Below the pieces are notes generated by a model. The model made no database searches. It was given only the letters and a program-made list of their open reading frames with translations, and was not told where the DNA came from. Positions 1-39,120 of a stretch of 64,000 nucleotides of DNA are shown one piece after another (the stretch's first letter is position 1; each line of letters starts with the position of its first letter). Both the position numbers and the translations under genes were made by a program. Source of the DNA: Eledone cirrhosa (Eukaryota); contig OZ024743.1 of NCBI GenBank assembly GCA_964016885.1, positions 65,782,001 to 65,846,000 of the forward strand. Reading direction: 5' to 3'.

Positions 1-3000
1 ACAACCACTACCACGTTAGTAACAGAACCACTACCACGTTAGTAACACAACCACTACTACAGAACCACTACCACCTTAGTAACACAACCACTACCACGTT
101 AGTAACACAACCACTACCACGTTAGTAACACAACTACTACTACAGAACCACTACCACCTTAGTAACACAACCACTACCACGTTAGTAACACAACCACTAC
201 CACGTTAGTAACACAACCACTACCACGTTAGTAACACAACCACTACCACGTTAGTAACACAACCACTACTACAGAACCACTACCACCTTAGTAACACAAC
301 CACTACCACATTAGTAACATAACCACTACCACGTTAGTAACAAAACCACTACTACAGAACCACTACCACCTTAGTAACACAACCACTACCACGTTAGTAA
401 CACAACCACTACTACAGAACCACTACCACCTTAGTAACACAACCACTACCACGTTAGTAACACAACCACTACCACGTTAGTACCACAACCACTACCACCT
501 TAGTAACACAAACACTACCACGTTAGTGACACAACCACTACCATGTTAGTAACACAACCACTACCACGTTAGTAAGACAACCACTACTATGTTAGTAACA
601 CAACCACTCCCACGTTAGTAACACAACCACTACCACATTAGTAACACAACCACTACCACATTAGTAACACAACCATTACCACGTTAGTAACACAACCACT
701 ACCACGTTAGTAACACAACCACTCCCACGTTAGTAACACAACCATTACCACGTTAGTAACACAACCACTACCACGTTAGTAACACAACCATTACCACGTT
801 AGTAACACAACCACTACCACGTTAGTAACACAAGCACTACCACGTTAGTAACACTACCACTACCACGTTAGTAACACAACCACTACCACGTTAGTAACAC
901 AACCACTACTATGTTAGTAACACAACCACTACCATGTTAGTAACACAACCACTACCACGTTAGTAACACAACCACTACCACGTTAGTAACACAACCACTA
1001 CCACGTTAGTAATACAACCACTACCACGTTAGTAACACAACCACTACCACGTTAGTAACACAACCACTACCACGTTAGTAACACAACCACTACCACCTTA
1101 GTAACACAACCACTACCACGTTAGTAAAACAACCACTACCACGTTAGTAACACAACCACTACTATGTTAGTAACACAACCACTACCACATTAGTAACACA
1201 ACCACTACCACGTTAGTAACACAACCACTACTATGTTAGTAACACAACCACTACCACGTTAGTAACACAACCATTACCACGTTAGTAACACAACCACTAC
1301 CACGTTAGTAACACAACCACTACCACGTTAGTAACACTACCACTACCTCGTTAGTAACACAACAACTACCACGTTAGTAACACAACCACTACTATGTTAG
1401 TAACACAACCACTACCATGTTAGTAACACAACCACTACCACGTTAGTAACACAACCACTACTATGTTAGTAACACAACCACTACCACGTTAGTAACACAA
1501 CCACTACCACGTTAGTAACACAACCACTACCACGTTAGTAATACAACCACTACCACGTTAGTAACACAACCACTACCACGTTAGTAACACAACCACTACC
1601 ACGTAAGTAACACAACCACTACCACCTTAGTAACACAACCACTACCACGTTAGTAAAACAACCACTACCACGTTAGTAACACAACCACTACCACGTTAGT
1701 AACACAACCACTACCACGTTAGTAACACAACCACTACCACGTTAGTAACACAACCACTACCACGTTAGTAACACAACCACTACCACGTTAGTAACACCAC
1801 CACTACCATGTTAGTAACACAACCACTACCACGTTAGTAACACAACCACTACCACGTTAGTAACACAACCACTACTATGTTAGTAACACAACCACTACCA
1901 CGTTAGTAACACAACCACTACCACGTTAGTAACACAACCACTACCACGTTAGTAACACAACCACTACCACGTTAGTAACACAACCACTACCACGTTAGTA
2001 ACACAACCACTACTACAGAACCACTACCACCTTAGTAACACAACCACTACCACGTTAGTAACACAACCACTACCACGTTAGTAACACAATCACTACCACG
2101 TTAGTAATAAAACCACTACCACGTTAGTAACACAACCACTACCACGTTAGTAACACAACCACTACCACGTTAGTAACACAACCACTACCACATTAGTAAC
2201 ACTACCACTACCTCGTTAGTAACACAACAACTACCGCGTTAGTAATACAACCACTACCACGTTAGTAACACAACCACTACCACGTTAGTAACACAACCAC
2301 TACCACGTTAGTAACACAACCACTACCACCTTAGTAACACAACCACTACCACGTTAGTAAAACAACCACTACCACGTTAGTAACACAACCACTACCACGT
2401 TAGTAACACAACCACTACCACGTTAGTAACACAACCACTACCACGTTAGTAACAGAACCACTACAACGTTAGTAACACAACCACTAACACGTTAGTAACA
2501 CAACCACTAACACATTAGTAACACAACCACTACCATGTTAGTAACACAACCACTACCATGTTAGTAACACAACCACTACCACGTTAGTAACACAACCACT
2601 ACCACATTAGTAACACAACCACTACCACGTTAGTAACACAACCACTACCACGTTAGTAACACAACCACTACCACATTAGTAACACAACCACTACCACGTT
2701 AGTAATACAACCATTACCACGTTAGTAACACAACCACTACCACGTTAGTAACACAACCACTACCACGTTAGTAACACAACTACTACCACGTTAGTAATAC
2801 AACCACTACCACGTTAGTAACACAACCACTACTATGTTAGTAACACAACCACTACCACGTTAGTAACACAACCACTACCACGTTAGTAACACAACCACTA
2901 CCAGGTTAGTAACACAACCACTACCACGTTAGTAACACAACCACTACCACGTTAGTAACACAACCACTACTACGTTAGTAAAACAACCACTACCACGTTA

Positions 3001-6000
3001 GTAACTCAACCACTACTATGTTAGTAACACAACCACTACCACGTTAGTAACACAACCACTACCACGTTAGTAACACAACCACTACTATGTTAGTAACACA
3101 ACCACTACCACGTTAGTAACACAACCATTACCACGTTAGTAACACAACCACTACCACGTTAGTAACACAACCACTACCACGTTAGTAACACAACCACTAC
3201 CATGTTAGTAACACAACCACTACCACGTTAGTAACACAACCACTACTATGTTAGTAACACAACCACTACCACGTTAGTAACACAACCACTACCACGTTAG
3301 TAACACAACCACTACCACGTTAGTAATACAACCACTACCACGTTAGTAACACAACCACTACCACGTTAGTAACACAACCACTACCACGTAAGTAACACAA
3401 CCACTACCACCTTAGTAACACAACCACTACCACGTTAGTAAAACAACCACTACCACGTTAGTAACACAACCACTACCACGTTAGTAACACAACCAATACC
3501 ACGTTAGTAACACAACCACTACCACGTTAGTAACACAACCACTACCACGTTAGTAACACAACCACTACCACGTTAGTAACACCACCACTACCATGTTAGT
3601 AACACAACCACTACCACGTTAGTAACACAACCACTACCACGTTAGTAACACAACCACTACCACGTTAGTAATACAACCACTACCACGTTAGTAACACAAC
3701 CACTACCACGTTAGTAACACAACCACTACCACGTAAGTAACACAACCACTACCACCTTAGTAACACAACCACTACCACGTTAGTAAAACAACCACTACCA
3801 CGTTAGTAACACAACCATTACCACTTTAGTAACACAACCACTACCACGTTAGTAACACAACCACTACCACGTTAGTAACACTACCACTACCTCGTTAGTA
3901 ACACAACAACTACCACGTTAGTAACACAACCACTACTATGTTAGTAACACAACCACTACCATGTTAGTAACACAACCACTACCACGTTAGTAACACAACC
4001 ACTACTATGTTAGTAACACAACCACTACCACGTTAGTAACACAACCACTACCACGTTAGTAACACAACCACTACCACGTTAGTAATACAACCACTACCAC
4101 GTTAGTAACACAACCACTACCACGTTAGTAACACAACCACTACCACGTAAGTAACACAACCACTACCACCTTAGTAACACAACCACTACCACGTTAGTAA
4201 AACAACCACTACCACGTTAGTAACACAACCACTACCACGTTAGTAACACAACCACTACCACGTTAGTAACACAACCACTACCACGTTAGTAACACAACCA
4301 CTACCACGTTAGTAACACCACCACTCCCATGTTAGTAACACAACCACTACCACGTTAGTAACACAACCACTACCACGTTAGTAACACAACCACTACTATG
4401 TTAGTAACACAACCACTACCACGTTAGTAACACAACCACTACCACGTTAGTAACACAACCACTACCACGTTAGTAACACAACCACTACCACGTTAGTAAC
4501 ACAACCACTACTACAGAACCACTACCACCTTAGTAACACAACCACTACCACGTTAGTAACACAACCACTACCACGTTAGTAACACAATCACTACCACGTT
4601 AGTAATAAAACCACTACCACGTTAGTAACACAACCACTACCACGTTAGTAACACAACCACTACCACGTTAGTAACACAACCACTACCACATTAGTAACAC
4701 TACCACTACCTCGTTAGTAACACAACAACTACCGCGTTAGTAATACAACCACTACCACGTTAGTAACACAACCACTACCACGTTAGTAACACAACCACTA
4801 CCACGTTAGTAACACAACCACTACCACCTTAGTAACACAACCACTACCACGTTAGTAAAACAACCACTACCACGTTAGTAACACAACCACTACCACGTTA
4901 GTAACACAACCACTACCACGTTAGTAACACAACCACTACCACGCTAGTAACAGAACCACTACAACGTTAGTAACACAACCACTAACACGTTAGTAACACA
5001 ACCACTACCACGTTAGTAACACAACCACTACCATGTTAGTAACACAACCACTACCATGTTAGTAACACAACCACTACCACGTTAGTAACACAACCACTAC
5101 CACATTAGTAACACAACCACTACCACGTTAGTAACACAACCACTACCACGTTAGTAACACAACCACTACCACATTAGTAACACAACCACTACCACGTTAG
5201 TAATACAACCATTACCACGTTAGTAACACAACCACTACCACGTTAGTAACACAACCACTACCACGTTAGTAACACAAGTAATACCACGTTAGTAATACAA
5301 CCACTACCACGTTAGTAACACAACCACTACTATGTTAGTAACACAACCACTACCACGTTAGTAACACAACCACTACCACGTTAGTAACACAACCACTACC
5401 AGGTTAGTAACACAACCACTACCACGTTAGTAACACAACCACTACCACGTTAGTAACACAACCACTACCACGTTAGTAAAACAACCACTACCACGTTAGT
5501 AACTCAACCACTACTATGTTAGTAACACAACCACTACCACGTTAGTAACACAACCACTACCACGTTAGTAACACAACCACTACTATGTTAGTAACACAAC
5601 CACTACCACGTTAGTAACACAACCATTACCACGTTAGTAACACAACCACTACCACGTTAGTAACACAACCACTACCACGTTAGTAACACAACCACTACTA
5701 TGTTAGTAACACAACCACTACCATGTTAGTAACACAACCACTACCACGTTAGTAACACAACCACTACTATGTTAGTAACACAACCACTACCATGTTAGTA
5801 ACACAACCACTACCACGTTAGTAACACAACCACTACTATGTTAGTAACACAACCACTACCACGTTAGTAACACAACTACTACCACGTTAGTAACACAACC
5901 ACTACCAGGTTAGTAATACAACCACTACCACGTTAGTAACACAACCACTACCACATTAGTAACACAACCACTACCACGTTAGTAACACAACCACTACCAC

Positions 6001-9000
6001 ATTAGTAAAACAACCACTACCCCGTTAGTAACACAACCACTACCACGTTAGTAACACAACCACTACTACGTTAGTAACACAACCACTACCACGTTAGTAA
6101 CACAACCACTACCACCTTAGTAACACAACCACTAACACGTTAGTAACACAACCACTACCACATAAGTAATACAACCACTACCACGTTAGTAACACAACCA
6201 CTACCACGTTAGTAACACAACCAGTACCATGTTAGTAACACAACCACTACCACGTTAGTAACACAACCACTACCACGTTAGTAAGGCAACCACTACCACG
6301 TTAGTAACACAACCCCTACCACGTTAGTAACACAACCACTACTACAGAACCACTACCACCTTAGTAACACAACCACTACCACGTTAGTAACACAACCACT
6401 ACCACGTTAGTAACACAACCACTACCACGTTAGTAATACAACCACTATCACGTTAGTAACACAACCACTACCACGTGAGTAACACAACCACTACCACGTT
6501 AGTAACACAACCACTACCACATTAGTAACACAACCACTACCACGTTAGTAACAGAACCACTACCACGTTAGTAACACAACCACTACCATGTTAGTAACAC
6601 AACCACTACCACGTTAGTAACACAACCACTACCACATTAGTAACACAACCACTACCACGCTAGTAACACAACCACTACCACATTAGTAACACAACCACTA
6701 CCACGTTAGTAACACAACCACTACCACGTTAGTAACACAACCACTACCACGTTAGTAACTCAACCACTACTATGTTAGTAACACAACCACTACCACGTTA
6801 GTAACACAACCACTACCACGTTAGTAACACAACCACTACTATGTTAGTAACACAACCACTACCACGTTAGTAACACAACCATTACCACGTTAGTAACACA
6901 ACCACTACCACGTTAGTAACACAACCACTACCACGTTAGTAACACTACCACTACTATGTTAGTAACACAACCACTACCATGTTAGTAACACAACCACTAC
7001 CACGTTAGTAACACAACCACTACCACGTTAGTAATACAACCACTACCACGTTAGTAACACAACCACTACCACGTTAGTAACACAACCACTACCACGTTAG
7101 TAACACAACCACTACCACCTTAGTAACACAATCACTACCACGTTAGTAAAACAACCAATACCACGTTAGTAACACAACCACTACTATGTTAGTAACACAA
7201 CCACTACCACGTTAGTAACACAACCACTACCACGTTAGTAACACAACCACTACTATGTTAGTAACACAACCACTACCACGTTAGTAACACAACCACTACC
7301 ACGTTAGCAACACAACCACTACCACGTTAGTAAGACAACCACTACCACGTTAGTAACACAACCACTACCACGTTAGTAACACAACCACTACTACAGAACC
7401 ACTACCACCTTAGTAACACAACCACTACCACGTTAGTAACACAACCACTACCACGTTAGTAATACAACCACTACCACGTTAGTAATACAACCACTACCAC
7501 GTTAGTAACACAACCACTACCACGTTAGTAACACAACCACTACCACGTTAGTAACACAACCACTACCACATTAGTAACACAACCACTACCACGCTAGTAA
7601 CACAACCACTACCACATTAGTAACACAACCACTACCACGTTAGTAACACAACCACTACCACGTTAGTAACACAACCACTACCACGTTAGTAACTCAACCA
7701 CTACTATGTTAGTAACACAACCACTACCACGTTAGTAACACAACCACTACCACGTTAGTAACACAACCACTACTATGTTAGTAACACAACCACTACCACG
7801 TTAGTAACACAACCATTACCACGTTAGTAACACAACCACTACCACGTTAGTAACACAACCACTACCACGTTAGTAACACTACCACTACTATGTTAGTAAC
7901 ACAACCACTACCATGTTAGTAACACAACCACTACCACGTTAGTAACACAACCACTACCACGTTAGTAATACAACCACTACCACGTTAGTAACACAACCAC
8001 TACCACGTTAGTAACACAACCACTACCACGTTAGTAACACAACCACTACCACCTTAGTAACACAACCACTACCACGTTAGTAAAACAACCAATACCACGT
8101 TAGTAACACAACCACTACTATGTTAGTAACACAACCACTACCACGTTAGTAACACAACCACTACCACGTTAGTAACACAACCACTACTATGTTAGTAACA
8201 CAACCACTACCACGTTAGTAACACAACCACTACCACGTTAGCAACACAACCACTACCACGTTAGTAAGACAACCACTACCACGTTAGTAACACAACCACT
8301 ACCACGTTAGTAACACAACCACTACTACAGAACCACTACCACCTTAGTAACACAACCACTACCACGTTAGTAACACAACCACTACCACGTTAGTAATACA
8401 ACCACTACCACGTTAGTAATACAACCACAACCACGTTAGTAACACAACCACTACCACGTTAGTAACACAACCACTACCACGTTAGTAACACAACCACTAC
8501 CACATTAGTAACACAACCACTACCACGTTAGTAACAGAACCACTACCACGTTAGTAACACAACCACTACCACGTTAGTAACACAACCACTACCACGTTAG
8601 TAACAAAACCACTACCACGTTAGTAACACAACCACTACCACGTTAGTAACAGAACCACTACCACGTTAGTAACACAACCACTACCACGTTAGTAACACAA
8701 CCACTGCCACGTTAGTAACACAACAACTACCATGTTAGTAACACAACCACTACCATGTTAGTAACACAACCACTACCACGTTAGTAACACAACCACTACC
8801 ACGTTAGTAACACAACCACTACCACGTTAGTAACACAACCACTACCACGTTAGTAATACAACCAATACCACGTTAGTAAAACAACCACTACTATGTTAGT
8901 AACACAACCACTACCACGTTAGTAACACAACCACTACCACGTTAGTAACGCAACCACTACCACGTTAGTAACACAACCACTACCACGTTAGTAACACAAC

Positions 9001-12000
9001 CACTACCACGTTAGTAACACAACCACTACCACGTTAGTAAAACAACCACTACCACGTTAGTAACACAACCACTACCACGTTAGTAACACAACCACTACCA
9101 CATTAGTAACACAACCACTACCACGTTAGTAACACAACCACTACTATGTTAGTAACACAGCCACTACTATGTTAGTAACACAACCACTACCACGTTAGTA
9201 ACACAACCACTACCACGTTAGTAACACACCCACTATCACGTTAGTAACACAACCACTACCACATTAGTAACACAACCACTACCACGTTAGTGACACAACC
9301 ACTACCACGTTAGTAATACAAACACTACCACCTTAGTAACACAACCACTACCACGTTAGTAACACAACCACTACCATGTTAGTAACACAACCACTACCAC
9401 GTTAGTAACACACCCACTATCACGTTAGTAACACAACCACTACCACATTAGTAACACAACCACTACCACGTTAGTAACACAACCACTACCACGTTAGTAA
9501 TACAACCTCTACCACGTTAGTAACACAACCACTACCACGTTAGTAACACAACCACTACCACGTTAGTAACACAACCACTACCACGTTAGTAACACAACCA
9601 CTACTACAAAACCACTACCATCTTAGTAACACTACCACTACCACGTTAGTAACACAACCACTACTATGTTAGTAACACAACCACTACCACGTTAGTAACA
9701 CAACCACTACCACGTTAGTAATAGAACCACTACCACGTTAGTAACACAACCACTACCACGTTAGTAACACAACCACTACGACGTTAGTAACACAACCACT
9801 ACTATGTTAGTAACACAACCACTACCGCGTTAGTAAAACAACCACTACCACGTTAGTAACCCAACCACTACCACGTTAGTAACACAACCACTACTATGTT
9901 AGTAACACAACCACTACCACGTTAGTAACACAACCACTACCACGTTAGTAACACAACCACTACCACGTTAGTAACACAACCACTATCACGTTAGTAACAC
10001 AACCACTACCACGTTAGTAACACAACCACTACCACGTTAGTAAGACAACCACTACCACGTTAGTAACACAACCACTGCCACGTTAGTAACACACCCACTA
10101 TCACGTTAGTAACACAACCACTACCACATTATTAACACAACCACTACCACGTTAGTAACACAACCACTACCACGTTAGTAATACAACCACTACCACGTTA
10201 GTAACACAACCACTACCACGTTAGTAACACAACCACTACCATGTTAGTAACACAACCACTACCACGTTAGTAACACACCCACTATCACGTTAGTAACACA
10301 ACCACTACCACATTAGTAACACAACCACTACCACGTTAGTAACACAACCACTACCACGTTAGTAATACAACCACTACCACGTTAGTAACACAACCACTAC
10401 CACGTTAGTAACACAACCACTACCACGTTAGTAACACAACCACTACCACGTTAGTAACACAACCACTACTACAAAACCACTACCATCTTAGTAACACAAC
10501 CACTACCACGTAAGTAACACAACCACTACTACGTTAGTAACACAACCACTACCACGTTAGTAACTCAACCACTACTATGTTAGTAACACAACCACTACCA
10601 CGTTAGTAACACAACCACCACCACGTTAGTAACACAACCACTACTATGTTAGTAACACAACCACTACCACGTTAGTAACACAACCATTACCACGTTAGTA
10701 ACACAACCACTACCACGTTAGTAACACAACCACCACCACGTTAGTAACACTACCACTACTATGTTAGTAACACAACCACTACCATGTTAGTAACACAACC
10801 ACTACCACGTTAGTAACACAACCACTACTATGTTAGTAACACAACCACTACCATGTTAGGAATACAACCACTACCACGTTAGTAACACAACCACTACTAT
10901 GTTAGTAACACAACCACTACCACGTTAGTAACACAACCACTACCACGTTAGTAACACAACCACTACCACGTTAGTAATACAACCACTACCACGTTAGTAA
11001 CACAACCACTACCACGTTAGTAACACAACCACTACCACGTTAGTAACACAACCACTACCACCTTAGTAAGACAACCACTACCACGTTAGTAAAACAACCA
11101 CTACCACGTTAGTAACACAACCACTACTATGTTAGTAACACAACCACTACCACGTTAGTAACACAACCACTACCACGTTAGTAACACAACCACTACTATG
11201 TTAGTAACACAACCACTACCACGTTAGTAACACAACCACTACCACGTTAGTAACACAACCACTACCACGTTAGTAAGACAACCACTACCACGTTAGTAAC
11301 ACAACCACTACCACGTTAGTAACACAACCACTACCACGTTAGTAACACAACCACTACTACAGAACCACTACCACCTTAGTAACACAACCACTACCACGTT
11401 AGTAACACAACCACTACCACGTTAGTAACACAACCACTACCACGTTAGTAATACAGCCACTACCACGTTAGTAACACAACCACTACCACGTTAGTAACAC
11501 AACCACTACCACGTTAGTAACACAACCACTACCACATTAGTAACACAACCACTACCACGTTAGTAACAGAACCACTTCCACGTTAGTAACACAACCACTA
11601 CCACGTTAGTAACACAACCACTACCACGTTAGTAACACAACCACTACCACGTTAGTAACTCAACCACTACCATGTTAGTAACACAACCACTACCATGTTA
11701 GTAACACAACCACTACCACGTTAGTAACACAACCACTACCACATTAGTAACACAACCACTACCACGTTAGTAACACAACCCCTACCACGTTAGTAACACA
11801 ACCACTACCACATTAGTAACACAACCACTACCACCTTATTAACACAATCATTACCACGTTAGTAACATAACCACTACCACGTTAGTAACACAACCACTAC
11901 CACGTTAGTAACACAACCACTGCCACGTTAGTAATACAACCACTACCACGTTAGTAAAACAACCACTACTATGTTAGTAACACAACCACTACCACGTTAG

Positions 12001-14870
12001 TAACACAACCACTACCACGTTAGTAACACAACCACTACCACGTTAGTAACACAACCACTACCACGTTAGTAACACAACCACTACCACGTTAGTAACACAA
12101 CCACTACCACGTTAGTAAAACAACCACTACCACGTTAGTAACACAACCACTACCACGTTAGTAACACAACCACTACCACATTAGTAACACAACCACTACC
12201 ACGTTAGTAACACAACCACTACTATGTTAGTAACACAACCACTACTATGTTAGTAACACAACCACTACCACGTTAGTAACACAACCACTACCACGTTAGT
12301 AACACAACCATTACCACGTTAGTAACACAACCACTACCACGTTAGTAACACAACCACTACCACGTTAGTAACACTACCACTACTATGTTAGTAACACAAC
12401 CACTACCATGTTAGTAACACAACCACTACCACGTTAGTAACACAACCACTACTATGTTAGAAACACAACCACTACCATGTTAGGAACACAACCACTACCA
12501 CGTTAGTAACACAACCACTACTATGTTAGTAACACAACCACTACCACGTTAGTAACACAACCACTACCACGTTAGTAACACAAACACTACCACGTTAGTA
12601 ATACAACCACTACCACGTTAGTAACACAACCACTACCACGTTAGTAACACAACCACTACCACGTTAGTAACACAACCACTACCACGTTAGTAAAACAACC
12701 ACTACCACGTTAGTAACACAACCACTACTATGTTAGTAACACAACCACTACCACGTTAGTAACACAACCGCTACCACGTTAGTAACACAACCACTACTAT
12801 GTTAGTAACACAACCACTACCACGTTAGTAACACAACCACTACCACGTTAGTAACACAACCACTACCACGTTAGTAAGATAACCACTACCACGTTAGTAA
12901 CACAACCACTACCACGTTAGTAACACAACCACTACCACGTTAGTAACACAACCACTTCTACAGAACCACTACCACCTTAGTAACACAACCACTACCACGT
13001 TAGTAACACAACCACTACCACGTTAGTAACACAACCACTACCACGTTAGTAATACAGCCACTACCACGTTAGTAACACAACCACTACCACGTTAGTAACA
13101 CAACCACTACCACGTTAGTAACACAACCACTACCACATTAGTAACACAACCACTACCACGTTAGTAACAGAACCACTTCCACGTTAGTAACACAACCACT
13201 ACCATGTTAGTAACACAACCACTACCACGTTAGTAACACAACCACTACCACGTTAGTAACTCAACCACTACCATGTTAGTAACACAACCACTACCATGTT
13301 AGTAACACAACCACTACCACGTTAGTAACACAACCACTACCACATTAGTAACACAACCACTACCACGTTAGTAACACAACCCCTACCACGTTAGTAACAC
13401 AACCACTACCACATTAGTAACACAACCACTACCACGTTAGTAACACAACCATTACCACGTTAGTAACACAACCACTACCACGTTAGTAACACAACCACTA
13501 CCACGTTAGTAACACAACCACTGCCACGTTAGTAATACAACCACTACCACGTTAGTAAAACAACCACTACTATGTTAGTAACACAACCACTACCACGTTA
13601 GTAACACAACCACTACCACGTTAGTAACACAACCACTACCACGTTAGTAACACAACCACTACCACGTTAGTAAAACAACCACTACCACGTTAGTAACACA
13701 ACCACTACCACGTTAGTAACACAACTACTACCACATTAGTAACACAACCACTACCACGTTAGTAACACAACCACTACTATGTTAGTAACACAACCACTAC
13801 TATGTTAGTAACACAACCACTACCACGTTAGTAACACAACCACTACCACGTTAGTAACACACCCACTATCACGTTAGTAACACAACCACTACCACATTAG
13901 TAACACAACCACTACCACGTTAGTAACACAACCACTACCACGTTAGTAATACAACCACTACCACGTTAGTAATACAACCACTACCACGTTAGTAACACAA
14001 CCACTACCATGTTAGTAACACAACCACTACCACGTTAGTAACACACCCACTATCACGTTAGTAACACAACCACTACCACATTACTAACACAACCACTACC
14101 GCGTTAGTAACACAACCACTACCACGTTAGTAATACAACCACTACCACGTTAGTAACACAACCACTACCACGTTAATAACACAACCACTACCACGTTAGT
14201 AACACAACCACTACCACGTTAGTAACACAACCACTACTACAAAACCACTTCCATCTTAGTAACACAACCACTACCACGTTAGTAACACAACCACTACCAC
14301 GTTAGTAACACAACCACTACTATGTTAGAAACACAACCACTACCACGTTAGTAACACAACCACTACCACGTTAGTAACACAACCACTACCACGTTAGTAA
14401 CACAACCATTACCACGTTAGTAACACAACCACTACCACGTTAGTAATAGAACCACTACCACGTTAGTAACACAACCACTACCACGTTAGTAACACAACCA
14501 CTACTATGTTAGTAACACAACCACTACCACGTTAGTAACACAACCACTACCACGTTAGTAATAGAACCACTACCACGTTAGTAACACAACCACTACCACG
14601 TTAGTAACACAACCACTACGACGTTAGTAACACAACCACTACTATGTTAGTAACACAACCACTACCACGTTAGTAAAACAACCACTACCACGTTAGTAAC
14701 ACAACCACTACCACGTTAGTAACACAACCACTACTATGTTAGTAACACAACCACTACCACGTTAGTAACACAACCACTACCACGTTAGTAACACAACCAC
14801 TACCACGTTAGTAACACAACCACTACCACGTTAGTAACACAACCACTACCACGTTAGTAACACAACCACT
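1..14870. repeat. 23-bp tandem satellite, consensus ACAACCACTACCACGTTAGTAAC, about 640 units, runs off the left edge
   Basis: Continuous 23-bp periodicity with point variants and a recurrent 14-bp short unit (AACCACTACTACAG). No ORF is listed in the track for this region. Confidence 0.99.
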
Positions 14871-15106
14871 TCCATCCTACTCGATACATCGATCTTCCAC
14901 GATCAATCGACTCTCTGACACGATAATAAAACAATAAACTAATTAACTACCAACCTCTGACTTCTGTCTTGTTTTCAGTGTTCTACACACACAAACAGAC
15001 ACACACATATGCGCACACACGAACCCACACACACACACACAGACACGCACGCACATGCATATACACGCACACATATACTAATACACACGCGCACGCACAT
15101 ACACTA

Positions 15107-27407: not shown

Positions 27408-27775
27408 CAGTAATAATAAAATAATAATAATAAATATCTTCGATTGGTTTCTGGGAACCCATAAGTTACACTCCAAGTTACGTAACATGCATGTCAGTAA
27501 TGTATCCGAAGATGAAACGAGGCTATCCCTTTCTCAACAGACATTTCGTTCCGGTATCTACTAAGCACGGCTTATGAACCCGACTGCCAACTGCTCTAGC
27601 AGTACCTTTGGCAGTGGGGTCAGGTGTTCTTTCTCAAGAAAAAAGGAAGCACACATCCGGGTACATTCAAAAGTTTGAACAATGGAATGTTACGCAACTT
27701 GGAGTGTAGCTTACGTATTCCCAGAAAACTATCACTATTACCTAACTTATGTTATTACAGTGTCTTAAGTAATAC

Positions 27776-28172
27776 TTGTTTTTACTTTTGACACAAGGCC
27801 AGCTAATATCCTAGTGTATAGCTGGTACTTTTATTTTATCGACCCCGTAAGGATGAAAGGCAAAGTTAACCTCGGCGGGGTTTGAACTCAGACCATAAAT
27901 GGCCGTACCTCTACGCTGCAAAGCATGGCGTACGACCCTCTACCGATACTGCCACTCCACCGCCCTAGTGTCTTAAGTAATAATTGTTTCTACCTTTAGC
28001 ACAAGGCCAAGAATTATCCAGTTCATTACTGGTACTTTATTTCATCGACCCCGTAAGGATGAAAGGCAAAGTTAACCTCGGCGGGATTTGAACTCAGAAT
28101 GGCAAGGGCCGTAACTCTATGCGTCAAAGCATGGCGTCCGACCCTTTACCGATACTGCTAATCCACCGCCCT
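27776..28172 (-). mobile_element. Two tandem SINE family 1 copies at one target site
   Basis: AGTGTCTTAAGTAA occurs at 27759, 27967 and 28173, bounding both copies. Confidence 0.92.
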
Positions 28173-28407
28173 AGTGTCTTAAGTAACAATAAGATCGTAA
28201 ACCGACTATTCTACACACACACACACACACACACATACATGTGTGTATGTGGTCTTGATAAACGCCCACAAGCGAGAAACAGACTGTCGTCCGCCCTTTG
28301 TTGTTTTTGCCGAGAATAAGTGACATAGTCACTAATTTAAAACTCACAGCGAATGGTCTTCTAAATGTTTTTAATTAAACATACGGTATATTGCGAAATA
28401 TACTATA

Positions 28408-33295: not shown

Positions 33296-33714
33296 ATGGT
33301 TTCTTATTTAGGCACAAGGCCAGCAATTTTGGAGGAGGTGAAAGTCGATTAAATCGAGCTTAGTCCGTGACTGGTACTTTATTTTATCGACCCCATAAGG
33401 ATGAATGGCAAAGCTAACCTAGGCGGGATTTGAACTCAGATTATAAAGGGCCTTAATTCTATGCTGCAAAGCATGGTGTCCGACCCTCTACCGATACGGC
33501 CAATCCACCACCCTCAGTCAATAATAATTGTTTCTACTTCTGGCACAAGGCCAGCAATTATCCCAGTACATTACTGGTACTTTATTTTATTGACCCCGTA
33601 AGGATGAAAGGCAAAGTTAACCTCGGCGGGACTTGAACTCAGACTGTAAAGGGATGTAACTATGTTAGAAGGCATGGCATCGAACCCTCTACCGATACTG
33701 GCAATTCACCGCCC
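33296..33714 (-). mobile_element. Two tandem SINE family 1 copies
   Basis: Reverse complement of the consensus twice, with AGTCAATAATAAT repeated at the boundaries. Confidence 0.9.
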
Positions 33715-33859
33715 TATAATAATAAAAGTTGATATTAATTTAGGCTAAGTTTCACAGCAATAGCATAACTCCTTCAGCCGACCCTCATACGTAAATACAT
33801 ACATATATACATACGTACGGACATACACACATATACATTCTTGAGAAAACTTACGCAGT

Positions 33860-34506: not shown

Positions 34507-34839
34507 TTATTTTAATATAAATTATATATTTTATATACATACGGACAACATGCTTGCTGCATAGAGTTACATTCCTTTAAGTTCTGAGTTCAAATACTTC
34601 CAAGGTTAACTTTGCCTTTCATCCTTACGGGGTCGATAAAATAAGGTACTAGTAATGCACTGGGGTCGGTTTAATTGGTTCACCTTGTGCCTATAGTAGA
34701 AATCATTTTTATTAAAAAAAAAACATTGTGGAAACAAGTTAACCGCCAGGGCTCACCGTAGAGGTTCTACCTTTTCAATATATATAAAGCGTGATTGGAA
34801 AATTGCTTTGGCTTGTGTGTTTCTGCTATTAAATCGATT

Positions 34840-35300: not shown

Positions 35301-35900
35301 AGGTATCTAGTCTTTAATGCGAAGATATACCAACGATAATCAGCAGAATACTGATGAAGGACATTCTTGTTTCTTGGTCTATTTTTATTCATATGTTCAT
35401 AATCGCAACAACGCAGCACGCCATTTTTCATTCACATACATTTTTTCCCTTCGCTGTGGTTTGTATTTTTTCTGTCACCTTACTGCTTTCCTCTTTCTCT
35501 CTCTCCCCTTCTCTCTCCTTCACCTCTTGCTTTCCCCCACTCCCGCTGCTGGTCACTCACTCTCGGCTGGCCCCTTCCTCACACTTTCACTCACTCACTC
35601 TCTGCTACTCCTTCTCTCTCACTTCCTCCCGCCTGACCTGCTTGAATTTCTTTCCTCTCTCCGTCTATTTCTTCTCGTCATTTGATTTGTCGGACTTAAA
35701 CCCACAAGATTCATTGACTTGTCTCTCTTTTCCTCTCTTTACGTTGCATTACTACCATGTTGTTTGTTTCCTTTCCTCTGTCCCGATAACTTAATTTAGT
35801 TATCGCTCGCACTAATTTTAGGTATCTAGTCTTTAATGCGAAGAAATACCAACGATAATCAGCAGACTACTGATGAAGGACATTCTTGTTTCTTGGTCTA
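35301..35900 (+). mobile_element. Non-coding 519-bp unit with about 80-bp terminal direct repeat, in (TA)n; related circularly permuted copy at 38500-39085
   Basis: 35301-35380 is repeated at 35820-35900. The pyrimidine-rich body and the CTGATGAAGGAC motif are shared with 38500-39085. Confidence 0.75.
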
Positions 35901-36463
35901 TATATACATGATTGCTGCCCCTCGTTATCGAGTATGGCCACTGCACGATATAACATTATAAATAATTATCAGTTAATGCTATCGTGCAATGCTTGTGCGT
36001 GAAGATATTTTTAAAAGTGAGGAAAGACTGTGCACTTAGCCAATCCCACTCTCTGAGTGACAATAGCTATAACCAGAAAAGAGGAAAAGACCAACATCAT
36101 CGGTAACTACTGAGCCGCAGCTTTTATGTCGGAGTTATCCCAGTTTCCTGAGTTGCCTTCTAGAAGAATACCATAACAAAGGCTAGGGATCCTTTACTCC
36201 CAGCGGTTTAACCGCATGATCGGGTGTCCAGCCCGACTATTTCTATGTCCCTGCGCATATACATACATATGCACACATGTATATACATATTTACACAATT
36301 TTGGATGGCCATTGACTCTCATGAGTTCTTCCGCCCTTTGTGTACAAGTGTATATGCAGTTATTAGATACATACATACAAGCTGGCTGCCCCCTCGTTAT
36401 CGAGTATGGCCATTGCACAAAAAAAAACATAATAATAACAATAACGACAATAATAATAATAAA

Positions 36464-36645
36464 TGTTTCTACTTTTGGCACAAGGCCAGCAAATACCCAG
36501 TACATTACTGGTACTTTATTTTATCGACCCCGTAAGGATGAAAGGAAAAGTTAACTTCGGTGGGATTTGAAATCAGACCGTAAAAAGACGTAACTATGCT
36601 AGAAAGCATGGCGTCCGACCCTCTACCGATTTTGCCAATTCACCA
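36464..36645 (-). mobile_element. SINE family 1 (head partly duplicated at 36944-37000)
   Basis: Consensus match on the minus strand. Confidence 0.88.
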
Positions 36646-36679
36646 CAATAATAATAATTATTTTTTTATTTTATATACA

Positions 36680-36713
<34 letters not shown>

Positions 36714-36803
36714 CGAGGTGTGTCAGAAAAGTTCTAGGACCGATGTCACAAAAGATTTATTTCAAACCCAAACTTCGCACTAAGAGTTTTCTGACAACAC
36801 CTC

Positions 36804-36804
<1 letters not shown>
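36714..36804. mobile_element. 91-bp Tc1/mariner-type MITE with TA target duplication
   Basis: TA-CGAGGTGTGTCAGAAAAG ... GTTTTCTGACAACACCTCG-TA terminal inverted repeats. Confidence 0.8.
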
Positions 36805-36890
<86 letters not shown>

Positions 36891-36891
36891 C

Positions 36892-36944
<53 letters not shown>

Positions 36945-37160
36945 ACTATGCTGAAAAGCATGGCGTCCGACCCTCTACTGATTCTGCCAATTCACCGCAA
37001 TAATTATTATTATTTTTTTATTTTACATACATACATACATGCATATATATATATTGTTATTTTTTTTATTTTATATACATACATACATACATACATACAG
37101 ATATATATGTATATATATATATATCCACCAGGGATGGTATTCTGTCATTACAACAGCAGA

Positions 37161-37249
37161 GGTCCGACGAGCTTTTGATTACAGAGTCGGGCCTGACCGA
37201 TATAGAAAGATCGAACCTTGAGCTGATCAATAGCGAAACGTGCGTCACC
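37161..37249 (+). ncRNA. PLE-type hammerhead motif with long stem II, core variant CCGACGA
   Basis: GGU-CCGACGA-GCUUUUGAUUA...UGAUCAAUAGC-GAAAC-GUGC-GUC-ACC, followed by AATAAA. Confidence 0.65.
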
Positions 37250-37291
37250 AATGAATAAACGTAATGAGGGCTTAACATTTCGTCCTTGTAT

Positions 37292-37327
<36 letters not shown>

Positions 37328-37847
37328 AGGTTTATATTTATATATATATATATACATAAATATAAACCTACAAATATGTGTGTGTATATTTGTACATATG
37401 TGTGTGTGTGTATATGTATGTACATATGTGTGTATGTGTGTATGTATATATATATGTACATATGCGTGTGTGTAGTTTCTATCTATCTGTCTATCTATCC
37501 ATCTATCTATCCATTTATCTATCAACCTACCTATATACGTATATATGTATAAGTACATGTATGTATGCGTATGCGTGTGTAACATCTAATAGCGAGAGAG
37601 GGAGAGAGAAAGAGGGGGGACGTGGAGAGAGGGGAAGAAAGGGAAGAGCAAGACATGATTTTGAATAATAAATAATTAAATAACTATCAAAGAAACACCA
37701 ACACAGTGATACTAAGAACTAAAGTGTATGTGAAAATAAGTTGAAACAGAGAAAGAAGGGGAGAGAATACAGGATGTTTACCTGAATATATTGGATATTA
37801 GAAAGGAGCTCTGTCACGTGTTGTCAATCAGCTGACTTTCTTCATTG

Positions 37848-37930
37848 TATTTTAATTTCCTGTATATTCTGAGAAATTGAAACTCGTTTTAGTAAGAAAA
37901 TGGCGCTATTTGGGTCGAAAAAATAAAGTA

Positions 37931-38000
<70 letters not shown>

Positions 38001-38001
38001 G

Positions 38002-38071
<70 letters not shown>

Positions 38072-38079
38072 ATCCATAC

Positions 38080-38113
<34 letters not shown>

Positions 38114-38188
38114 TGATACTTTATTTTTTCGACCCAAATAGCGCCATTTTCTTACTAAAACGAGTTTCAATTTCTCAGAATATACAGG

Positions 38189-38199
<11 letters not shown>
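37848..38199. repeat. Near-perfect inverted repeat centred on a (TA)n tract
   Basis: About 90 bp of unique arm plus CT/GA and TA microsatellite, mirrored on both sides. Confidence 0.95.
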
Positions 38200-38227
<28 letters not shown>

Positions 38228-38256
38228 AAAGAATAGAGGTGTAACACACAAGTTAT

Positions 38257-38488
38257 TATATATTGGTAAACGGAATAGAAAATGCTGACAAATTGTTCAC
38301 AGTTGAAAAATGGTTTAATTAGGAATAAAAAAGTATTAGTGATTGTATGGGTTAGTATTCAGTTGTGGTTTTAAAACCACAACTGAATACTAACCCATAC
38401 AATCACTAATACTCTTTTATTCCTAATTAAACCATTTTTCAACTGTGAACAATTTGTCAGCATTTTCTATTCCGTTTACCAATATATA
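38257..38488. repeat. Spacer-less 232-bp palindrome
   Basis: Centre GTGGTTTT|AAAACCAC at 38372/38373; one visible mismatch between arms. Confidence 0.95.
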
Positions 38489-39120
38489 TATATATATATC
38501 TGTTTCGTTCTTTGTATCTTTACCCTTTCTAGCAGTCTCTCTCTCTGTTAGCCTCTTCCTCAACTTTCACTCACTCATACCCTGTCACTACCTCTCCTCC
38601 TCTCCTCTTTCTTCCCGCTTGACCTGTCCGATTTCTTTTCTCGCGCACTCTTGGCCAAGCCGGTATGAAATTTTTTTTCTCTCTCTCTCTCGTCTGCGTC
38701 TTCACAGAACTTATGTTTACCGAATTCGCAGACCAGACCCCTTCTTCTTCCTCCCGTTAGACCTGTGCGAAATTCCTTCCTTGCTCACATTTCAACCAGG
38801 TCTGATGGTCTTTATTCTCTAGTTCACGATTTTATCGAGTTTATATTCATAGAAATCTGGGACTTGTCTCTTTCTTCTCACTTTCTGTTGCTTAAACCAT
38901 TTTGTTTGTTCACCCTAACGTTCTCTTTATTTACGTGTCCCAACGACTTTTTTTAGCCGTTGTTCGCACCAACCTGAGGTATATGGCCCTTAAAGCGATG
39001 AAATGCCTAGGACGGTTGGAGGGTCACTGATGAAGGACTCACTTTTTTATATGTAACCCATTTGCAACGCCGCAGCTCCATTATTATCATATATATGTAT
39101 ATATATATATATATATATGT

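Follow-up and report, generated by a model that had tools for sequence, protein, structure and literature searches.

A high-copy tandem repeat of Eledone cirrhosa with a conserved hammerhead motif in SGC order that is likely to act as a self-cleaving ribozyme

The subject of this report is a repeat family of Eledone cirrhosa, encountered in a 64,000-nucleotide stretch of the genome (GenBank assembly GCA_964016885.1, contig OZ024743.1, positions 65,782,001 to 65,846,000 of the forward strand; here called the window), whose tandem units carry a conserved motif of 102 nucleotides (nt). The motif contains the three core strands of the hammerhead ribozyme in the order cleavage site (S), GAAA (G) and CUGAnGA (C), one of the six block orders defined by Eckert et al. 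(2023; PMC10085705) and named type SGC there. The repeat appears to be a non-autonomous Penelope-like element, and by analogy with known hammerheads its motif is quite likely to fold within a single copy as a self-cleaving ribozyme. Five type-SGC RNAs are reported to cleave in vitro, at rates of 0.007-0.19 per min (PMC10085705). The motif likely works as a hammerhead of this type, but it does not have the stem II that plain membership calls for; relative to type SGC it is a variant form in a new setting.

A first-pass annotation of the window had pointed out two copies of the motif, A and B, and sequence inspection finds all of their core strands where it placed them, in the order UH, GAAA, CUGAUGA. 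The annotation argued that this order lies outside hammerhead types I, II and III and proposed a pseudoknot or assembly between copies; the pseudoknotted, non-circular order is supported by the covariation of stems I and III (see below), but the order itself had already been published as type SGC. Copies A and B had also been taken for two diverged elements, whereas they are subfamilies of one large repeat family, and the motif had been drawn too short, since the conserved fold begins about 40 nt farther upstream, at 35780 and 38937. A third, decayed copy reported at 35302 is indeed degraded, but it is the 5'-truncated first unit of the 519-bp tandem that contains copy A. A descriptor with UH, GAAA and CUGAnGA in this order, stems I and III of at least 4 bp and no stem II finds exactly two sites in the window, copies A and B; applied to 200 first-order Markov copies of the window, it averages 0.005 sites per copy and never exceeds 1. 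A later covariance model matches only copies A and B and the truncated third copy within the window. The window yields no Rfam match at the gathering threshold, and a search with copy B at E values up to 10 gave one match, judged to be chance.

Parsing of the copies gives four helices besides stems I and III, here called Pa, Pb, Pc and Pd, all of which close inside one copy. The upstream strand contributes, in order, one side of Pa, the hairpin Pb and one side of Pc; Pa is completed by the letters that follow CUGAnGA and position 10.1, and Pc by the letters that precede position 11.1 and GAAA. Because Pa, Pb and Pc meet with 0-1 unpaired bases, a four-way junction is predicted in place of stem II, and in this model the upstream strand accounts for the missing stem by pairing with both of the strands that would normally form it. 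The first-pass annotation was right that there is little or no canonical stem II: no duplex of at least 2 bp closed by an R10.1-Y11.1 pair is present, the strands pairing with the upstream strand instead, and at most one direct pair forms (in 15 of 18 representatives, described below). Nested folding of the short motifs with ViennaRNA finds no unusual stability (z 0.17 and -1.03), but such folding is uninformative for a pseudoknotted structure.

The helix Pd is formed by the six bases after Pc and the linker between stems III and I. At the boundary of stem III and Pd, one strand has a 3-nt bulge followed by GA and the other strand has GA, which is the signature of a kink turn. As described by Lilley (2014; PMC4316175), a kink turn consists of a 3-nt bulge, then G.A and A.G pairs, between a canonical and a non-canonical helix; the motif has the same arrangement, with G1b.A1n and A2b.G2n after the bulge and between two helices. 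Positions G1b, A2b and A1n are invariant in 18 of 18 representatives, and 2n is G in 16 and U in 2. Copy A has U at 2n, which is described as a folding variant, as in Kt-23 (PMC4316175). In the model the kink would return Pd to the tips of stem I and Pc, and this bend-back would substitute for the usual contact between loop I and loop II. The features of the two insertions in the window are as follows.

35301-35898, plus strand: repeat insertion of subfamily A, flanked by (TA)n tracts and holding about 1.15 units of a 519-bp tandem
35301-35362, plus strand: 5'-truncated first motif copy, in which the upstream strand is missing, GAAA reads GATA and stem I has one mismatch; predicted to be inactive
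35780-35881, plus strand: copy A, whole predicted fold
35780-35783 with 35878-35881: copy A, Pa; 35784-35805: hairpin Pb
35807-35810 with 35838-35841: copy A, Pc; 35812-35817 with 35857-35862: Pd
35821-35825 with 35846-35850: copy A, stem III; 35827-35832 with 35864-35869: stem I
35821-35826: copy A core strand GGTA-TC; 35843-35846: GAAA; 35847-35850: TACC; 35870-35876: CTGATGA
35877 and 35842: copy A, positions 10.1 and 11.1, A.A; kink-turn position 2n is U
35826-35827, plus strand: copy A, predicted cleavage site, after AUC, by analogy with the hammerhead core
38500-39088, plus strand: repeat insertion of young subfamily B, flanked by (TA)n tracts and holding 589 nt of a 623-627-bp unit
38937-39038, plus strand: copy B, whole predicted fold, shared letter for letter with many other copies in the genome
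38937-38967, plus strand: copy B, upstream strand, predicted from covariation to form the four-way junction that replaces stem II
38937-38940 with 39035-39038: copy B, Pa; 38941-38962: hairpin Pb; 38964-38967 with 38995-38998: Pc
38969-39019, plus strand: copy B, extended stem III (Pd, 38969-38974 with 39014-39019; stem III, 38978-38982 with 39003-39007)
38976-38977, GA; 39008-39010, 3-nt bulge; 39011-39012, GA: copy B, kink-turn signature
38978-38983: copy B, site strand GGTA-TA; 39004-39007: TGCC
38984-38990 with 39020-39026: copy B, stem I
39000-39033, plus strand: copy B, core strands (GAAA, 39000-39003; CTGATGA, 39027-39033), with an A10.1-U11.1 pair (39034 and 38999)
38983-38984, plus strand: copy B, predicted cleavage site, after AUA, by analogy with the hammerhead core

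The evidence for the fold comes mainly from covariation among 18 natural representatives, hand-picked from 178 clustered copies as cluster medoids or clean-looking copies. Model pairing is kept in 96.6% of 594 cells, and 18 of the 33 pairs change on both sides; none of 500 shuffles reaches the observed pairing and covariation, and registers that are slid out of place pair at 30-49%. Stem I is paired in 98% of cells, with two-sided changes in four of its six pairs, and stem III in 100%, with two of five. In a blind scan of all helices of at least 4 bp, run on an alignment that ended 8 nt after the core, the six model helices are the top 6 of 16. Stems I and III flank a complete core (CUGAnGA, GAAA and an NUH site with the U16.1-A15.1 pair). 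Ten of the 11 core positions are invariant and the remaining one is kept in 17 representatives, with a single private change; position 17 is C or A only, never G, and position 7 is U or C only. Positions 10.1 and 11.1 pair in 30 of 31 copies from loci picked regardless of this pair. A TCAC/GTGA double change in Pc occurs in 18 scattered copies across subfamilies; it was read as CpG decay and not taken as support.

Families H, F, K and M were found after the fold model had been written down. In subfamily H, Pc, Pd and stem III are altered on both sides with pairing kept, and the 40 matches scored are all 100% identical (9 dispersed, 31 in one array); this is a real young family. Family F has an altered Pa that obeys the model. 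The first Pc pair of family K has changed from U-A to A-U in all four copies, and with this family included 20 of 33 pairs are two-sided and 95.9% of cells are paired. In the distant family M, each model pair is kept in 18-24 of the 24 indel-free copies (27 in total), the site is GUC in 23 of 24, and the core is conserved in 19-24 of 24 at each position. The units of family M (L323, L324, L330-L354) are about 630 bp long, with an 11-bp Pb hairpin and C at 11.1.

The repeat family is very large. The shared core pattern, exact and at one spacing, has 12,255 matches in the 3.0-Gb genome, and the reversed control has none; other spacings add 133 and 594 matches. A first look had given more than 1,200 genome candidates for each of copies A and B. 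The copy A matches (40 scored) are mostly 96-98% identical, and 33 of the 40 scored for copy B are at 100%; subfamilies B and H are very young. There are more than ten subfamilies. Tandem units with one motif each measure 476-672 bp (89 natural units), and arrays hold between 2 and about 57 units. Subfamily H has expanded like a satellite at G000:C3:67677363-67705445 (L303-L322), where about 57 near-identical units of 499 bp form one array. Outside the motif the units of A, B and H barely align, with short alignable stretches only. No reverse transcriptase frame is seen in the repeat unit, and the stop-free frames across its pyrimidine-rich sequence have a low-complexity appearance. Contigs from three of four sequencing runs contain the repeat family, with ends and strand not visible there.

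A microsatellite starts 11-84 nt past CUGAnGA in 140 of 186 copies and is (TA)n in 135 of these; the copies in that set without a nearby downstream microsatellite are mostly inner tandem units. Many insertions terminate 11-17 nt past CUGAnGA, and inverted and 5'-truncated neighbouring copies are common. Two inverted duplications in the window (38020-38200 and 38330-38470) have their centres on or next to (TA)n and are typical of the inverted insertions of this genome.

This layout matches that of the non-long-terminal-repeat (non-LTR) retrozymes and Penelope-like insertions described by Cervera and de la Pena (2020; PMC7229834), in Li et al. (2026; 10.64898/2026.07.22.740005) and in PMC8557442. 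The following life cycle can be proposed. The motif would cleave its own RNA in cis after AUH, and tandem transcripts would be cut to unit-length RNAs that are probably circularised. A Penelope-like reverse transcriptase would then begin at a (TA)n target a short distance past the ribozyme and read on across the cleavage site; partial tandems, inversions and arrays of great length would be the outcome. It is routine for insertions to run across the predicted site and to repeat, and this fits a circular or uncut tandem template. The 5' ends of insertions bear on cleavage less clearly: 14 of 59 lie about 30 nt upstream of GCGA or closer, compared with 6 in the next 40 nt, and among the first 26 loci, counted by eye, 7 start at the predicted site, 16 just downstream and 1 upstream, with 2 unclear. 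TA microhomology and ordinary 5' truncation would also produce an excess near the predicted site, and so it is at best weakly suggestive of cleavage.

Type SGC has been published from metatranscriptomes only and always with a normal stem II, and PMC10085705 states that the genomes of known organisms yielded no such RNA except one bacterial GCS candidate. The SGC descriptor used in that paper demands CUGAUGA(U)G, a stem II of 2-6 bp and CGAAA; it would therefore miss the repeat family, which has U, A or C at position 11.1 and lacks a stem II of 2 bp. The published SGC RNAs (HRIMA-1 and variants) and the repeat motif share the block order S, G, C within one molecule, the full catalytic core and a short linker between stem I and the stem II side (about 3 nt in HRIMA-1, 4-5 nt in the repeat family). 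Unlike them, the repeat motif has an extra 5' strand with its predicted four-way junction, a kink-turn extension of stem III and a high-copy setting in an animal genome. The non-LTR retrozymes of animals (PMC7229834; 10.64898/2026.07.22.740005) resemble the repeat family in their dispersed tandem units of a few hundred bp with one ribozyme per unit, low GC, thousands of copies and a proposed Penelope-like partner. They carry type I hammerheads, whereas the repeat motif has the SGC order and is not of type I, and the type I descriptors of those two papers would miss it for this reason.

In the literature outside subscription journals, type SGC was found only in the 2023 paper, with no case in an animal genome or retroelement and none with a four-way junction or kink turn, and no report was found of a kink turn inside a natural hammerhead. 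A 2026 paper (PMC13725137) cites type SGC in passing only. Pattern scans of metagenomes (116 loci in 10 of 64 parts) and of viruses (7 loci) gave no match that forms stems I and III (0 of 123). A resemblance to the twister and pistol ribozymes was considered and dropped, subfamily A being without the needed letters.

The probable source of the ribozyme is the Naiad group of Penelope-like elements. Craig et al. (2021; PMC8557442) report Naiads to be without a canonical hammerhead; they flag eight as half cores whose second half may stand on either side, and some carry no label but HHR_core or HHR_half_core. In the 54 consensus sequences of its File S5 the surroundings of two search strings were read by eye, non-exhaustively, and permuted hammerheads can be read in 15 of them. 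Seven entries (three from the coral Acropora, Naiad_Obim, Naiad_Ovul and two near parts 12 and 19 of the file) have the SGC order together with Pa, Pb, Pc, Pd and stems I and III, and their letters outside the core are unrelated to each other except within a genus. The 3' ends of the two octopus entries, Naiad_Obim and Naiad_Ovul, agree with subfamilies D and F in their kink-turn letters and their Pb loop. In the non-cephalopod SGC Naiads, Pa directly follows CUGAnGA and Pc directly precedes GAAA, so that these forms seem able to do without a separate 10.1-11.1 pair. Partial fits are the ctenophore Naiad_Bfor, whose stem I has 2 bp, and a decayed entry near part 25. All eight nematode Naiads (four of them named from their order in the file) can be read as type CSG and have a normal stem II; for this order PMC10085705 gives only two sequences, both metagenomic. 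By eye, these nematode motifs have canonical stems plus an extra helix that encloses the CUGAnGA block. The other 37 entries, including the bivalve, hemichordate and fish ones, show no such motif at the two strings; the bivalve and hemichordate ends seem to have other conserved, structured-looking motifs without CUGAnGA, which could be a different ribozyme or RNA element. No paper that notes permuted hammerheads in Naiads was found.

The repeat family shares with Naiads (PMC8557442) the bias to (TA)n targets, partial tandems, inverted 5'-truncated copies and, by eye for the Naiads, a common RNA structure at the 3' end; unlike Naiads, its unit shows no reverse transcriptase frame. This likeness suggests a Naiad 3' end as the ancestor of the ribozyme. 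The genome yielded no active Naiad: a Naiad-like core pattern has two decayed matches and two further relatives in the genome, with no Naiad frame within 1.5 kb, though no Naiad protein search was made. Loci L355, L356, L358 and L359 hold old copies, now decayed, of another family, and its core comes closest to the octopus Naiad ribozyme. Penelope-like frames in the flanks of six loci are separate from the repeat and in most cases lie behind microsatellites. At L109:840-1150, L010 and L133:1-800 there are Penelope-like elements that have a C-terminal GIY-YIG frame and (TA)n targets, and their 3' ends appear by eye to carry ordinary minimal type I hammerheads. The flanking elements at L109 and L133 were rejected as the parent on this ground. 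For the young subfamilies B and H, another Penelope-like element that targets (TA)n is a candidate mover.

Several observations weigh against a cis-cleaving ribozyme of Naiad descent. The fold model was derived from the same sequences on which it was scored, and the shuffle control ignores kinship. Changes in Pa and Pc are few, with one or two independent events each on the tree (more with families K and M), Pa is ragged in the decayed copies of family K (91% paired), and a scan of single column pairs was non-discriminating, with 162 pairs passing and 18 of these in the model. The duplex stem II with G10.1-C11.1 of the published SGC descriptor is absent, and the 10.1-11.1 pair forms in only 15 of 18 and 12 of 17 representatives. 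In subfamily A, 29 of 33 copies have A.A at these positions, including copy A of the window, and this mismatch makes copy A a weaker ribozyme candidate than B or H. Family M has an altered bend in place of a clean kink-turn signature. No Naiad reading frame is seen beside any repeat copy, and cephalopod Naiads are described as long inactive (PMC8557442), whereas B and H are very young.

Part of this pattern could arise if the fold were real but no longer catalytic, serving as a recognition site for a reverse transcriptase or a kink-turn-binding protein. The non-standard stem II, the many copies reached by subfamily A despite A.A at 10.1/11.1 and U at 2n, and array 3' ends just downstream of the motif would all suit such a site. 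However, all catalytic positions are conserved and only 7 and 17 vary freely, which is the pattern of active hammerheads, and position 17 is never G among the representatives; moreover, coral-type Naiads (PMC8557442) are likewise without a separate 10.1-11.1 pair, so that the mismatch may be tolerated. We consider loss of catalysis unlikely. An active hammerhead that assembles only between two copies, as in the dimeric Penelope hammerheads, is clearly less probable still. The repeat is tandem, the single-copy fold requires several crossing helices, and ViennaRNA, which considers nested folds only, sees no unusual stability in the short motif. Yet with one CUGAnGA per unit the order stays non-canonical even on a circle, every helix closes inside the 102 nt of one copy, families A-K have no palindromic loop, and the published SGC forms are described as cis-cleaving (PMC10085705). 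Assembly between copies, which the first-pass annotation had offered beside the pseudoknot, is not needed to explain the covariation.

It is very improbable that the motif is a box C/D-like or other kink-turn RNA in which the hammerhead letters are coincidental. CUGAUGA does hold both box-like words, and the kink turn of D-type copies resembles a box C'/D' pair. On the other side, there is no Rfam match, no box C partner lies upstream in the unit, and every family has stems I and III around UH, GAAA and CUGAnGA in the exact register of a hammerhead; Naiad forms without the kink turn also retain the core (PMC8557442). An ordinary truncated type III hammerhead, or chance, can be set aside altogether. 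A weak hairpin can be drawn after CUGAUGA in subfamily A only, but full tandem units have no GAAA after CUGAUGA, the upstream GAAA-stem III element covaries, and chance would supply 0.005 such sites per window. The first-pass annotation had named a normal GAAA downstream of CUGAUGA as a sign of such truncation, and none occurs at stem II distance in any family examined.

On balance, we favour the broader view that non-circularly permuted hammerheads are the standard ribozyme of a major Naiad branch and of its non-autonomous derivatives across animals: type SGC, with a four-way junction in place of stem II (and in cephalopods a kink turn, the first in a natural hammerhead), and type CSG in nematodes. 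If this is true, few ribozymes would outnumber permuted hammerheads in some animal genomes, and the reported lack of ribozymes in Naiads would be explained; a direct test is thereby offered of the point left open by Craig et al. (2021), namely why Naiads spread without a canonical hammerhead. The non-circular hammerhead would also cease to be just a rare RNA of the environment and would count as an element encoded in a genome, present in more than 12,000 copies in a single animal. Its core would be shown to work in the absence of a duplex stem II, which is treated as a defining feature and required by the published descriptors consulted. The kink turn would provide a handle for protein control of cleavage.

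The many covarying subfamilies and the identical young copies make a bench test simple, with B and H best suited as first candidates. The constructs suggested in the first-pass annotation (35810-35900 and 38965-39050) exclude the upstream strand and could give a false negative.

Two other repeats were noted in the window. Positions 1-14874 consist of a 23-bp satellite with 652 copies, a 92% match and strong strand skew. A repeat of about 200 bp that resembles a short interspersed nuclear element occurs in several copies, some of them tandem, at 27759-28190, 33370-33745, 34590-34680 and 36470-36650.

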